Positions 18,067 to 23,545 of a DNA stretch of 64,000 nucleotides are shown one piece after another (the stretch's first letter is position 1; the number at the start of each line of letters is the position of its first letter). The translations under genes were made by a program, and so were the position numbers. Source of the DNA: Escherichia phage vB_EcoM_CE1. The DNA is taken from the sequence record ON229909.1, one strand, 5' to 3'. The notes below the pieces were generated by a model. The model saw only the letters and a list, made by a program, of their open reading frames with translations, was not told where the DNA came from and ran no database searches.

Positions 18067-18067
<1 letters not shown>

Positions 18068-18615
18068 TGAAACAATACCAATTTTTAATTAAAGATATCC
18101 TGGAAAACGGTTATGAAACCGATGACCGAACAGGCACAGGAACAATTGCTTTGTTCGGTACTAAATTACGTTGGGATTTAACTAAAGGTTTTCCTGCAGT
18201 AACGACTAAGAAGCTCGCCTGGAATGCATGTATTTCTGAGTTATTGTGGTTCTTATCAGGAAGTACTAACGTAAATGATTTGCGATTAATTCAACATAAT
18301 TCATTAATTCAAGGCAAAACAGTCTGGGATGAAAATTACGAAAATCAAGCAAAAGATTTAGGATATCATAGCGGTGAACTTGGTCCAATTTATGGAAAAC
18401 AATGGCGTGATTTTGGCGGTGTAGACCAAATTATAGAAGTTATTGATCGTATTAAAAAACTGCCGAATGATAGGCGTCAAATTGTTTCTGCATGGAATCC
18501 AGCTGAACTTAAGCAAATGGCATTACCGCCTTGTCACATGTTCTATCAGTTTAATGTGCGTAATGGCTATTTGGATTTGCAGTGGTATCAACGTTCTGTA
18601 GATGTTTTCTTGGGT
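18067..18615 (+). CDS. td: thymidylate synthase, exon 1
   Basis: 183 codons MKQYQFLIKDILENGYETDDRTGTGT...QRSVDVFLG; exon ends CTTGGGT as at the T4 td 5' splice site. Confidence 0.9.
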
Positions 18616-18877
18616 TAATTTAGGCCTGAGTATAAGGTGACTTATACTTGTAATCTATCTAAACGGGGAACCTCTCTAGTAGACAATCCCGTGCTAAATT
18701 GTAGGACTTTGGTTCTACATAAATGCCTAACGACTATCCCTTTAGGGAGTAGGGTCAAGTGACTCGAAACGATAGACAACTTGCTTTAGCAAGTTGGAGA
18801 TATAGTCTGCTCTGCATGGTGACATGCAGCTGGATATAATTCCGGGATAAGATTAACGACCTTATCTGAACATAATG
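18616..18877 (+). ncRNA. group I self-splicing intron in td, ORF-less
   Basis: 262 nt, begins TAATTTAGGCCTGAGTATAAGGTGACTTATACTTG and ends GATTAACGACCTTATCTGAACATAATG, matching the T4 td intron core; no ORF in the P6 loop. Confidence 0.85.
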
Positions 18878-19189
18878 CTTCCATTTAATATTGCATCATA
18901 TGCTGCGTTAGTTCATATTGTAGCTAAGATGTGTAATCTTATTCCAGGAGATTTGATATTTTCTGGTGGTAATACTCATATCTATATGAATCACGTAGAA
19001 CAGTGTAAAGAAATTTTACGTCGTGAACCTAAAGAGCTTTGTGAACTGGTAATAAGTGGTCTACCTTATAAATTCCGCTATCTTTCTACTAAAGAACAAT
19101 TAAAATATGTTCTTAAACTCAGGCCTAAAGATTTCGTTCTTAAAGGTTATGAATCACACCCTCCTATTAAAGGAAAAATGGCAGTGTAA
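18878..19189 (+). CDS. td: thymidylate synthase, exon 2
   Basis: 103 codons LPFNIASYAALVHIVAKMCNLIPGDLIFSGGNTHIYMNH...; exon1+exon2 = 286 aa as T4 TS. Confidence 0.9.
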   Translation, partial: LPFNIASYAALVHIVAKMCNLIPGDLIFSGGNTHIYMNHVEQCKEILRREPKELCELVISGLPYKFRYLSTKEQLKYVLKLRPKDFVLKGYESHPPIKGKMAV

Positions 19190-19476: not shown

Positions 19477-19756
19477 ATACAAATCCGACTTTGATGTTAA
19501 TATTCACCGTGGTACATTTTGGGGAAATTACGTCGGTAAAGATGCTGGCAGCCGGGAGGCTGCCATTGAATTATTCAAAAAAGATTTTATACGTCGAATT
19601 AAATCCGGAGAAATAACTAAAGCACATTTAGAGCCTTTACGTGGAATGAGGCTAGGATGCACATGTAAACCAAAGCCGTGTCATGGTGATATAATAGCTC
19701 ATATAGTTAACCGATTGTTTAAAGACGATTTTCAAGTTGAGGACTTATGCAATTAA
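19430..19756 (+). CDS. hypothetical protein with [11 protein letters not shown] motif
   Basis: 108-aa ORF; overlaps previous ORF and nrdA start; true start uncertain. Confidence 0.45.
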
Positions 19757-22011
19757 TTAATGTTATCAAAAGTAGTGGTGTTTCTCAGAGCTTTGACCCG
19801 CAAAAAATTATTAAAGTTTTATCTTGGGCAGCTGAAGGAACATCTGTAGATCCTTATGAATTATATGAAAATATTAAATCATATCTCCGTGATGGAATGA
19901 CCACTGATGACATTCAAACTATTGTAATTAAGGCTGCTGCGAATTCTATTTCAGTTGAAGAGCCTGATTACCAATATGTAGCTGCACGCTGTTTAATGTT
20001 TGCTCTTCGTAAACATGTGTACGGACAGTATGAGCCCCGTTCATTTATTGACCATATTTCTTACTGTGTAAATGAAGGTAAATACGATCCTGAATTGTTG
20101 TCAAAATATTCTGCAGAAGAAATTACATTTTTAGAATCAAAAATTAAGCACGAGCGGGATATGGAATTTACTTATTCCGGGGCGATGCAATTAAAAGAAA
20201 AATATCTCGTTAAAGATAAAACCACTGGTCAAATTTATGAAACTCCACAGTTTGCATTTATGACTATTGGAATGGCATTGCATCAAGATGAACCTGTTGA
20301 CAGATTAAAACATGTTATTCGTTTTTATGAAGCAGTATCTACTCGACAGATTTCATTGCCAACTCCTATTATGGCTGGATGTCGTACTCCGACTCGGCAA
20401 TTTAGTTCATGTGTTGTTATTGAGGCAGGTGATTCGCTGAAGTCTATCAATAAGGCTTCTGCTTCAATTGTTGAGTATATTTCTAAACGAGCTGGAATCG
20501 GCATTAACGTTGGTATGATTCGTGCCGAAGGTTCTAAGATTGGCACAGGTGAAGTGCGTCATACTGGCGTTATTCCTTTTTGGAAACATTTTCAGACTGC
20601 TGTTAAATCATGTTCACAGGGCGGAATTCGTGGCGGCGCTGCTACTGCTTATTATCCTATTTGGCATTTGGAAGTTGAAAATCTTCTCGTTTTGAAAAAT
20701 AACAAAGGTGTAGAAGAAAACCGTATCCGTCATATGGATTATGGCGTCCAGCTGAATGATTTGATGATGGAACGATTCGGAAAGAACGATTACATTACTT
20801 TGTTTAGTCCGCATGAAATGGGTGGCGAACTTTATTATTCTTATTTTAAAGACCAAGACCGTTTCCGTGAATTATACGAAGCGGCAGAAAAAGATCCTAA
20901 TATTCGTAAAAAGCGTATTAAAGCCCGTGAACTATTTGAATTGCTCATGACTGAACGCTCAGGAACAGCAAGGATTTATGTGCAGTTCATTGATAATACG
21001 AATAACTATACTCCGTTTATTCGTGAAAAGGCGCCTATTCGCCAGAGTAACTTGTGTTGTGAAATTGCTATTCCAACAAATGATGTGAATGGACCTGACG
21101 CTGAAGTGGGCCTCTGCACTCTTTCTGCCTTTGTTCTTGATAACTTCGATTGGCAAGACCAAGATAAAATTAATGAATTGGCAGAAGTTCAAGTTCGTGC
21201 TCTTGATAATCTGTTGGATTACCAAGGATATCCAGTTCCTGAAGCAGAAAAAGCTAAAAAGCGTCGAAACCTTGGCGTAGGTGTTACTAACTATGCAGCT
21301 TGGCTGGCAAGTAACTTTGCTTCTTATGAAGATGCTAACGATTTAACACATGAACTATTTGAGAGATTACAGTATGGGCTCATTAAAGCATCCATTAAGC
21401 TCGCCAAAGAAAAAGGACCTTGCGAATATTATTCAGACACTCGTTGGTCTCGAGGCGAATTACCTATCGACTGGTACAATAAAAAGATTGACCAAATCGC
21501 AGCTCCAAAATACGTTTGTGACTGGTCGGCGCTGCGGGAAGACCTTAAGCTCTTTGGCATCCGTAATAGCACATTATCAGCACTTATGCCATGTGAGTCA
21601 TCTTCCCAAGTTTCTAACAGTACAAACGGTATCGAGCCTCCACGTGGACCAGTCTCTGTTAAAGAGTCAAAAGAGGGTTCCTTTAATCAAGTCGTGCCCA
21701 ATATTGAACATAACATAGATCTATATGATTATACATGGAAATTAGCTAAGAAAGGTAATAAACCTTATCTTACGCAGGTAGCTATTATGTTGAAATGGGT
21801 GTGCCAATCTGCTTCTGCTAATACTTACTATGACCCGCAGATTTTTCCAAAAGGAAAGGTTCCAATGTCAATAATGATTGATGACATGCTATACGGATGG
21901 TATTATGGCATTAAAAATTTCTATTATCATAATACCCGTGATGGTTCTGGTACTGATGATTATGAAATAGAAACTCCAAAAGCTGAAGATTGTTCATCCT
22001 GTAAATTATGA
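19747..22011 (+). CDS. nrdA: aerobic ribonucleotide reductase large subunit
   Basis: 754 aa, same length as T4 NrdA. Confidence 0.97.
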   Translation: MQLINVIKSSGVSQSFDPQKIIKVLSWAAEGTSVDPYELYENIKSYLRDGMTTDDIQTIVIKAAANSISVEEPDYQYVAARCLMFALRKHVYGQYEPRSFIDHISYCVNEGKYDPELLSKYSAEEITFLESKIKHERDMEFTYSGAMQLKEKYLVKDKTTGQIYETPQFAFMTIGMALHQDEPVDRLKHVIRFYEAVSTRQISLPTPIMAGCRTPTRQFSSCVVIEAGDSLKSINKASASIVEYISKRAGIGINVGMIRAEGSKIGTGEVRHTGVIPFWKHFQTAVKSCSQGGIRGGAATAYYPIWHLEVENLLVLKNNKGVEENRIRHMDYGVQLNDLMMERFGKNDYITLFSPHEMGGELYYSYFKDQDRFRELYEAAEKDPNIRKKRIKARELFELLMTERSGTARIYVQFIDNTNNYTPFIREKAPIRQSNLCCEIAIPTNDVNGPDAEVGLCTLSAFVLDNFDWQDQDKINELAEVQVRALDNLLDYQGYPVPEAEKAKKRRNLGVGVTNYAAWLASNFASYEDANDLTHELFERLQYGLIKASIKLAKEKGPCEYYSDTRWSRGELPIDWYNKKIDQIAAPKYVCDWSALREDLKLFGIRNSTLSALMPCESSSQVSNSTNGIEPPRGPVSVKESKEGSFNQVVPNIEHNIDLYDYTWKLAKKGNKPYLTQVAIMLKWVCQSASANTYYDPQIFPKGKVPMSIMIDDMLYGWYYGIKNFYYHNTRDGSGTDDYEIETPKAEDCSSCKL

Positions 22012-22062
22012 TATAATTTGACTCATGGACGAGTCACCAACTATTAACTAAGTGGAAAATTT

Positions 22063-22738
22063 ATGAGCACAGTTTTTAATACAAATCCAGTTGATGTTTT
22101 AACAGAACCTATGTTCTTCGGTTCAGGTCTTGGAATTGCACGTTATGATATTCAACGACATAAGGTATTTGAAGAACTTACAGAGAAGTCCTTATCATTT
22201 TTCTGGCGTCCTGAAGAAGTAAACTTAATGATGGATGCTGCACAGTTTAATAAGCTTCCTCAGTATCAGCAAAATATTTTTACTAATAATCTGAAGTATC
22301 AATCACTTTTGGATAGCATTCAGGGTCGTGCGCCGTCTGCTGTACTTATGTCATTAATTTCAGACCCAAGCCTTGATACATGGGTTGCTACGTGGACTTT
22401 TAGTGAAACTATTCACAGCCGTTCATATACACATATCATGCGAAATCTTTATACTGATCCATCGAAGGTATTTGATGAGATTGTATTAGATGAAGCTATT
22501 ATGAAACGTGCTGAATCCATTGGGCGTTATTATGATGATGTTCTTATTAAAACCCGTGAATGGGAAAATGCTAAAGAATTTGTAGAACTAGCTAAAGAAT
22601 CTCCTGATGCTGATTTTCGTTTAAACCGAGCTATTAAACAAGAAGCCGAAGCTAAACGTGCTTTAATGAAATCTCTTTACCTCTGTTTGCACGTTATTAA
22701 TGCCTTAGAAGCTATTCGTTTTTATGTATCTTTTGCGT
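22063..22738 (+). CDS. nrdB: ribonucleotide reductase small subunit, exon 1
   Basis: ORF ends ...AIRFYVSFA; conserved R2 motif continues (C + TFNF...MEGNAKI) only after removing 304 nt. Confidence 0.85.
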
Positions 22739-23042
22739 AAAATGCGCCTTTAAACGGTAACGTTTATCGAAAACTCCTTTAATTGCTGGAAAGTCCTTTA
22801 TAGGAAAACTAGCAGCCAAGGTTTTGCTTGCACCTTTAATTAGTATAATATAAATGATTATACTTTTAAGAGGATGCACAATTGCAAAGCAAGGTTCAAC
22901 GACTAGTCTTCGGACGTAGGGTCAAGCGACTCGAAATGGGGAGAATCCCTCTGGGATTGTGATATAGTCTGGTCTGCATAGTAATATGTAGCAGTTCATA
23001 AGAGAACGGGTTGAGAATTAGCGAGCTCAATCGAACATAACG
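22739..23042 (+). ncRNA. group I intron in nrdB, ORF-less
   Basis: 304-nt interruption at the nrdB intron site; 5' exon ends in U with GCGU complementary to intronic GCGC (P1); intron ends ...CGAACATAACG (terminal G); splicing restores a TGT Cys codon and frame; no ORF over 60 codons. Confidence 0.65.
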
Positions 23043-23545
23043 GTACCTTTAACTTCCATAAGAACATGGAAATCATGGAAGGTAATGCCAAGATTATGAA
23101 GTTCATTGCACGTGATGAGCAGCTTCACCTTAAAGGCACCCAATATATTATTCGTCAACTTCAACTTGGCACTGATGGTGATGAATGGGTTAAAATTGCT
23201 CAAGAGTGTGAACAAGAAGCAGTTGATATTTTCATGGAAGTTAACCGCCAAGAAAAAGACTGGGCAGTTCATTTATTTAAAGATGGCGATGTTCCTGGAT
23301 TAAATACAAATAGCATGTGGAGCTTTATTGATTACTTAACTGTATCTCGTATGAAACAGTGTGGTCTTCCATGCCCAATTACCGATGCTCCGGTTAAACA
23401 CCCATATCCTTGGATTCGTGAATATCTTAATTCTGATAATGTTCAATCCGCGCCACAAGAAGTAGAACTGTCATCTTACCTTGTTGCACAGATTGATAAT
23501 GATGTTGATGATAAAGTTATGATGAGTTTTAAAAAATACTTTTAA
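23043..23545 (+). CDS. nrdB: ribonucleotide reductase small subunit, exon 2
   Basis: in frame with track ORF 23066..23545 (MEGNAKIMKFIARDEQLHL...); total about 392 aa. Confidence 0.8.

Follow-up and report, generated by a model that had tools for sequence, protein, structure and literature searches.

The nrdB gene of Escherichia phage vB_EcoM_CE1 is interrupted by a group I intron of 304 nt that contains no homing endonuclease gene. We identified it in a 64,000-nt stretch of the phage DNA (sequence record ON229909.1), which is called the window here. It is very probable that this interruption is an allele of the T-even nrdB group I intron, derived from an RB3-type ancestor by deletion of the endonuclease gene I-TevIII, and we infer that it splices. 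Judged by its sequence, it is the classical T-even nrdB intron at the classical site, in a new allele. It has every testable feature of a group I intron and of the nrdB lineage, and lacks only the features of a mobile intron.

The frame of exon 1 opens at 22063 and runs to ...RFYVSFA, where the unspliced RNA carries a TAA (22738–22740). R2-like sequence picks up at 23043, after a gap of exactly 304 nt. The first-pass annotation had placed the splice sites after U22738 and G23042, and had predicted that this would restore the frame and create a TGT codon for a conserved Cys (SFA-C-TFNF). Both predictions hold. T22738 joined to G23043 gives TGT, which encodes Cys226 in ...SFACTFNFHKNMEIMEGNAKI..., and around the junction the product shows no difference from T4 NrdB (assembled from its annotated two-piece CDS) and is continuous with E. 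coli R2. The nrdB coding sequences of T4, RB3, and U5 are annotated as two-piece joins, and their boundaries coincide with 22738/23043. The predicted ligated frame has 1179 nt and encodes 392 amino acids. This product aligns with E. coli R2 (1piy) in a single alignment (residues 3–388, E = 1.4e-124), in which ...EAIRFYVSFACTFNF... of the product is matched by ...EAIRFYVSFACSFAF..., and it also matches Pfam PF00268. The splice junction sits between the RFYVSFA and MEGNAKI motifs.

The same boundaries are given by an intronless nrdB allele. Ec_O157kw, which is 97% identical, reads TTTGCATGTACC at the site, with no insert; its ATTCGTTTTTATGTATCTTTTGCATGTACCTTTAAC equals the predicted ligated exons with one synonymous difference. 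Neither flanking base recurs at the other end of the insert, and the intron ends at 22739 and 23042 are therefore unambiguous. The exon flanks TTTTGCGT and GTACCTTT are identical in the window, T4, RB3, U5, and nine other phages. The insertion lies between bases 1 and 2 of the Cys codon in ...YVSFA-C-TFNF..., which is the position that defines the T-even nrdB intron lineage. Inserts are found at base-for-base the same site in T4 (598 nt), RB3 and ECO07P1 (1091 nt), U5 (1083 nt), SG1 (420 nt), and others.

The gene order around nrdB is frd, td, nrdA (19747–22011), nrdB, denA, and rnlA, as in T4. The intron and the whole nrdB region (22063–23545) are 100% identical to those of Escherichia phage vB_vPM_PD112 (MH837626 / NC_054928, Tequatrovirus); the plus strand of the window is the reverse strand of the PD112 record. 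In both PD112 records, td (window 18067–19189) and nrdB (22063–23545) are each entered as two CDS, with no intron or join. The two nrdB entries are labeled 'NrdB, partial' and 'aerobic NDP reductase small subunit'. Two CDS are likewise given for nrdB in the records of BYEP01, SP21535, SG1, ECO07P1, G10400, and others.

A covariance-model scan, which the first-pass annotation had proposed as a check, was positive. Rfam RF00028 matches at 22722–22991 with 68.6 bits (gathering score 50, E = 2.7e-15), and the full model (1–253) is covered. The sole other match to this model within the window is the td intron. P1 and P6 are out of register in the Rfam alignment, with non-canonical pairs flagged, and the alignment stops at P9; the helices were re-placed by hand and named by the usual group I convention. 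We dropped the Rfam-aligned register of P1 and P6, and the hand-placed helices pair perfectly (Table 1).

Table 1. Features of the nrdB locus and its intron (positions in the window).
Feature	Position	Strand	Details and basis
nrdB exon 1	22063–22738	+	Codons 1–225 and base 1 of Cys226; ORF list, junction identical to T4 NrdB
Group I intron, 304 nt	22739–23042	+	T4/RB3 nrdB intron allele without the I-TevIII gene
nrdB exon 2	23043–23545	+	Bases 2–3 of Cys226 to stop codon; alignment to R2 and PF00268
P1	22735–22747	+	Exon GCGU 22735–22738 with guide GCGC 22744–22747; U22738·G22744 wobble at the 5' splice site
P2 hairpin, GUAA tetraloop	22751–22766	+	Three compensatory pairs among alleles
P3 (5' strand)	22774–22779	+	Rfam alignment, MFE fold
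P4	22784–22789 with 22809–22814	+	Rfam alignment, MFE fold
P5	22794–22797 with 22802–22805	+	Rfam alignment, MFE fold
P6 and P6a	22815–22895	+	P6 22815–22817 with 22893–22895; P6a 22824–22832 with 22883–22892
Relic of putative I-TevIII operator, TTTTGCTTGCACCTTTAATTAG	22822–22843	+	Read from the sequence
Relic of endonuclease regulatory hairpin	22833–22873	+	CCUUU 22833–22837 with AGAGG of the ribosome-binding site, 22869–22873
Deletion junction, single surviving ACAATTG	22878–22884	+	Includes the I-TevIII TTG start, 22882–22884
Last eight I-TevIII codons and stop (NCKARFND*)	22880–22906	+	Alignment with full-length introns
P7	22901–22905 with 22965–22969	+	Pseudoknot with P3
P7.1 (UUCG loop)	22906–22915	+	
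P7.2	22919–22932	+	
P3 (3' strand)	22938–22943	+	
P8	22945–22957	+	
P9 (GUAA loop)	22974–22991	+	MFE fold
P9.1	22994–23007	+	MFE fold
P9.2	23010–23031	+	MFE fold
Omega-G, intron-terminal G marking the 3' splice site	23042	+	Sequence

P1 pairs the exon end with the intronic GCGC, as had been suggested at first reading, and it is the same in all 10 alleles. It is just 4 bp long, and P10 has at best 2 bp; the T4 intron is alike in both respects. The loop of P6/P6a is the place of I-TevIII in the longer alleles (RB3, U5, and ECO07P1). All of the pairs in the hand-placed structure (86/86) are standard in the window. Across 10 distinct natural alleles, aligned after the ORF region had been taken out of those that have one, 99.1% of the cells are paired, a figure that is inflated relative to shifted controls because the structure was drawn from the window sequence. 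Changes on both sides were observed for nine pairs (three in P2, two in P9.2, and one each in P5, the loop-6 hairpin, P7.2, and P9). The compensatory pair in P5 occurs as three pair types. All six shifted control structures gave zero compensatory pairs, and none of 500 shuffles reached the observed value, in an alignment whose diversity is low (mean column identity 96%). P1, P3, P4, P6, P7, and P7.1 are invariant and P8 has a one-sided wobble change only, so covariation neither supports nor contradicts these helices. An unconstrained minimum free energy (MFE) fold recovers P3, P4, P5, P6/P6a, P7.1, P7.2, P8, P9, P9.1, and P9.2. The MFE is −86.7 kcal/mol (z = −2.6), and 0/100 shuffles fold as well.

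The intron ends in GAACAUAACG and the td intron of the same phage in GAACAUAAUG; the likeness had been pointed out in the first-pass annotation. The terminal CG/GTAC is common to 14/14 alleles examined, and the omega-G boundary is fixed by the intronless allele and by the T4, RB3, and U5 joins.

The part of the intron from P8 to P9.2 (22952–23040) has matches of 75–92% identity in unrelated phages. These are located in the DNA polymerase genes of Yersinia Yep-phi and an Acinetobacter phage, in unannotated or hypothetical regions of Yersinia Berlin, Pectobacterium phages, and Staphylococcus Twort, in an 'ATPase' gene of Pseudoalteromonas pYD6-A, and in a Vibrio nrdD. The matches suggest that phages widely share a group I intron core, which sits in differing host genes. 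The Ala codon before the splice site (22736, compared with position 968 of Ec_O157kw) is GCG in 13/13 intron-bearing alleles and GCA in one intronless allele. The third base of this GCG codon pairs with the guide sequence in P1. The difference between GCG and GCA, in a comparison with a single intronless allele, may reflect co-adaptation of exon and guide, or co-conversion.

Self-splicing is ascribed to the T4 nrdB intron in PMC2790892, and the first reports of this intron and of self-splicing in T4 are cited in PMC3653736. From the homology to T4 and the intact pairing, we infer that the 304-nt allele splices as well. By analogy with T4, the nrdB pre-mRNA would fold into P1–P9.2. A free guanosine bound in P7 would attack the phosphate after U22738, which would be held in P1 by the U·G pair with the guide GCGC. 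The freed 3'-OH of U22738 would then attack after the terminal G23042. Ligation of the exons would form the Cys226 codon TGT and yield an mRNA that encodes full-length NrdB of 392 amino acids. Unspliced RNA would give a 225-residue fragment only, because the TAA spans the 5' splice site.

It could be argued that the RNA is not spliced, and that nrdB is either a truly split gene with two separately translated ORFs or a pseudogene for which the host compensates. The records of PD112, BYEP01, and SP21535 would agree with this, since each gives two CDS without an intron. In phage Aeh1, a split reductase gene (nrdA) is reported to be functional. In addition, nrdB is dispensable for growth of T4 in many hosts, so the viability of the phage alone is no proof that the intron splices. 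However, the second annotated CDS would begin at an internal Met and lose the conserved CTFNFHKN segment. Both exons are intact and in register, and the 304 nt between them score as a group I intron and are 97–100% identical to introns described as self-splicing. Helix pairing is also maintained by compensatory substitutions among the alleles. We consider the absence of splicing extremely unlikely.

The closest known relative of the intron is that of RB3 (1091 nt; Eddy & Gold 1991; Robbins et al. 2007, PMC1865063), which lies in the same gene, at the same site, and between the same exon flanks. At each of its 304 positions, the window intron has the same base as that of RB3. The RB3 intron differs in holding 785 nt more in one block, which carries the 269-codon I-TevIII gene, and separately 2 nt (AT) more; it is mobile, whereas the window intron is endonuclease-free. 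In RB3, two direct copies of the 7-nt sequence ACAATTG, at intron positions 142 and 927, flank the 785-nt block. The TTG at which I-TevIII is annotated to start is part of the first copy and follows the ribosome-binding site AAGAGG by 8 nt. From the second copy, eight codons remain to the I-TevIII stop codon. We propose that an RB3-type intron, with its HNH homing endonuclease I-TevIII, was the parent of the 304-nt allele. A deletion of 785 nt between the ACAATTG repeats would have taken I-TevIII, beginning at the start codon and leaving the last eight codons and the stop. It would have spared all of the ribozyme helices, together with the now-useless endonuclease expression cassette. The last eight I-TevIII codons would have been kept because P7 begins in the same stretch and the 3' strands of P6a and P6 overlap it as well.

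The first-pass annotation had described the intron as ORF-less. This is correct with regard to the endonuclease: the ORF list of the window has no plus-strand ORF of at least 30 amino acids inside 22739–23042. The intron is not simply ORF-less, however, as it keeps expression signals of I-TevIII in addition to the eight codons. The ribosome-binding site AAGAGG survives at 22868–22873. In the hairpin that pairs with it, an inner 8-bp stem is formed by 22842–22849 and 22857–22864, and one pair of the hairpin is compensatory among the alleles. The hairpin also contains TATAAATG (22849–22856), which is one base off the T4 late-promoter consensus TATAAATA. RB3 and T4 carry TATAAATA at this position of the hairpin. 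No exact TATAAATA exists inside the 304-nt intron; the box is imperfect because of the loss of the 2 nt (AT) that complete it in RB3. A putative operator relic, TTTTGCTTGCACCTTTAATTAG, is similar to the homing site in the ligated exons, TTTTGCGT/GTACCTTTAACTTC: 17 of the first 20 positions agree. An approximate sequence search with exon 2 also hit this relic. The putative operator of I-TevIII and the hairpins that sequester the ribosome-binding sites of intron endonucleases have been described (PMC2988022). Three antisense ORFs of 36–55 amino acids are present in the intron. They have no significant Pfam match (two gave no hit, the third a chance-level one with E = 0.21), and we took them as chance ORFs.

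Other phages have lost different parts of the I-TevIII ORF. T4 and 215Ecol030PP lack 491 nt, AV109 lacks 504 nt, and SG1 lacks about 665 nt. The T4 intron shares the site and the helices of the window intron, with 97.1% identity over the shared 301 nt. The first-pass annotation had described it as about 600 nt long with a truncated I-TevIII, and its length is indeed 598 nt. The 491 nt of T4 were lost inside the ORF and a 97-codon remnant was kept, whereas the window intron has no remnant of this kind. The full-length intron of U5 (AY262133) lacks 2 nt of the ORF that RB3 and ECO07P1 have, at about intron positions 300–303 (RB3 numbering). This deletion should shift the frame of I-TevIII, and would represent another route of endonuclease decay. 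Sandegren and Sjoberg are said to have found, in 2004, that the intron endonuclease genes of T-even phages decay, and the varied I-TevIII deletions fit that picture.

The opposite direction of change has to be weighed, in which the intron without an ORF is the ancestral state and the RB3-type element arose when I-TevIII invaded it later. It is an accepted model that free-standing endonuclease genes invade introns which have none (PMC2988022). The ORF-less form occurs in five phages of two genera, with copies that differ by up to about 9%, and is thus not very recent. In the phage collection, no ORF-bearing intron is more than 94% identical to the DCP80-type intron. We nevertheless regard an ancestral ORF-less state as very unlikely. 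The 304-nt allele keeps sequence that is sensible only as an endonuclease expression cassette, namely AAGAGG with a TTG 8 nt on, the hairpin that sequesters the ribosome-binding site, the late-promoter-like box, and the operator-like copy of the homing site. Its junction falls at the 7-nt repeat ACAATTG, of which full-length introns have two copies, and this is the signature of a microhomology deletion. The same ORF has suffered three further classes of deletion (T4, AV109, and SG1), and the window allele is otherwise base-identical to RB3. The identities between the window and RB3, and between SP21535 and U5, suggest that the ORF-less alleles nest in ORF-bearing clades. The relic expression signals and the junction repeat together make an origin by deletion far likelier.

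The short direct repeat at the deletion end-points could also raise the suspicion of an assembly artefact, with reads collapsed over ACAATTG and a genome that is really full-length. The probability of this is practically nil: a 7-nt repeat is unable to collapse a modern read assembly, and the same junction was found in five independent assemblies from different laboratories, hosts, and flanking haplotypes.

The deletion junction is not confined to the window. A query spanning it has an uninterrupted match in six records from five phages, which are PD112 (two records), BYEP01, SP21535, CJY920, and DCP80. These phages belong to the genera Tequatrovirus and Gaprivervirus, and the public genomes of BYEP01, SP21535, CJY920, and DCP80 carry no annotation of the intron. 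The nrdB intron in any form is present in about 123–128 records, and most of these are full-length or T4-type. The BYEP01 intron differs from that of the window by one base. Apart from the missing ORF, the SP21535 intron equals that of U5, including the U5-type promoter loop; like U5, SP21535 has a 1635-nt gene that ends at the nrdB start, with the size and position of the U5 hef gene. In CJY920, P2 and P5 of SG1 type are combined with a 3' half of RB3 type. The intron of DCP80 (Gaprivervirus) is 91% identical to that of the window, whereas the exons are just 75–79% identical. Its nearest relative is the CJY920 intron (93.5%), and no ORF-bearing allele exceeds 94%. The contrast between intron and exon identity in DCP80 suggests transfer of the intron between genera. 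The DCP80 locus lies at about 1392–1700 of its record (PQ671644), where a run of N just upstream leaves nrdB exon 1 incomplete.

The junction is absent from complete E. coli genomes, and it is therefore not a prophage or host element. A 29-mer across the junction gave zero hits in the IMG/VR viral contigs. There was likewise no hit to a control 29-mer taken from the conserved core of the intron, which makes the IMG/VR result uninformative on rarity. The junction 29-mer had zero hits in JGI metagenome contigs as well, a result with no bearing on rarity, as the control was run on IMG/VR only.

The shared junction, the divergence of up to 9%, the compensatory changes in the helices, and the contrast between intron and exons in DCP80 raise the possibility that the endonuclease-free nrdB intron is a lineage of its own and not a one-off dead end. 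We put this forward tentatively and hold it to be somewhat less probable than the contrary. Alternatively, ACAATTG could be a recurrent deletion hotspot at which the endonuclease gene is shed repeatedly. The five ORF-less alleles may thus go back either to a single old deletion, with later recombination and divergence, or to several deletions at this repeat. The flanking haplotypes of the ORF-less alleles differ, being of RB3 type, of U5 type, and, in the 5' part of CJY920, of SG1 type. These differences lie in a slippage-prone AT-rich loop or could stem from exchange by recombination. An 8-nt repeat elsewhere in the ORF, CAATTGAA (RB3 positions 143 and 860), would have been an equally good deletion path.

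The window intron has no homing endonuclease gene, which a mobile group I intron would carry. The spacer between nrdA and nrdB is 51 nt long (22012–22062) and has neither mobE nor hef; an intron mobilized in trans would be expected to have a free-standing homing endonuclease gene next to nrdB. In T4, mobE is located upstream of nrdB; in the window, nrdA ends at 22011 and nrdB starts at 22063 without it. No endonuclease gene is annotated between frd and pseT in PD112. This spacer is a known hotspot for free-standing endonuclease genes, and it is empty in the window phage. Elsewhere, it holds nrdB.1 and mobE (T4), hef (U5), or an annotated homing endonuclease gene (SG1).

The I-TevIII of RB3 is active and drives homing (PMC1865063), and the defunct nrdB intron of T4 is mobilized in trans by MobE (PMC2790892). 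With no endonuclease in the intron and an empty spacer, trans-homing of the T4 type is not open to the genes of this genome. Without I-TevIII, and without mobE or hef between nrdA and nrdB, the intron would be unable to home by itself. By the general logic of homing, the intron also splits the target site of I-TevIII. It would persist as a non-autonomous passenger, phenotypically neutral and dependent on splicing. It would be kept in place because a conserved stretch of nrdB would be destroyed if the intron were lost imprecisely.

The td intron of the same phage offers a parallel in a different host gene. It spans 18616–18877 (262 nt) and is a group I intron of the same class (Rfam 73.8 bits), with a similar core and 3' end. 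It corresponds to the T4 td intron minus 755 nt, and the gap covers all of I-TevI and its upstream signals. The statement in the first-pass annotation that both introns in the window are endonuclease-free is therefore borne out. The td deletion removed the upstream expression signals as well, whereas the nrdB allele keeps them. The td introns of related phages measure about 262, 320, and 445 nt, and short forms are common. The laboratory construct td-delta1-3 is an engineered counterpart comparable to the 304-nt nrdB ribozyme.

A 2010 review describes the three T-even introns as all encoding their own endonuclease genes. In the literature searched, which lay apart from the Sandegren and Sjoberg survey of 2004, we found no description of a complete natural loss of I-TevIII. 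Endonuclease-free group I introns and decayed endonuclease genes of T-even introns are both well known, and nothing here alters the known workings of group I introns. The natural nrdB ribozyme of 304 nt is a minimal one and could be a compact substrate for splicing. In PD112 and several relatives, nrdB and td should be annotated as single spliced genes.

The 304-nt allele represents a clean natural example of the last step before the loss of an intron: the endonuclease is gone, relics of it remain, and the ribozyme is intact. If the endonuclease-free nrdB intron does form its own lineage, an intron that has lost its endonuclease would persist under selection for splicing and would still cross between phage genera. 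Such crossing might occur by ordinary recombination, or by trans-homing through the Hef or MobE of neighbors or through endonucleases of co-infecting phages.
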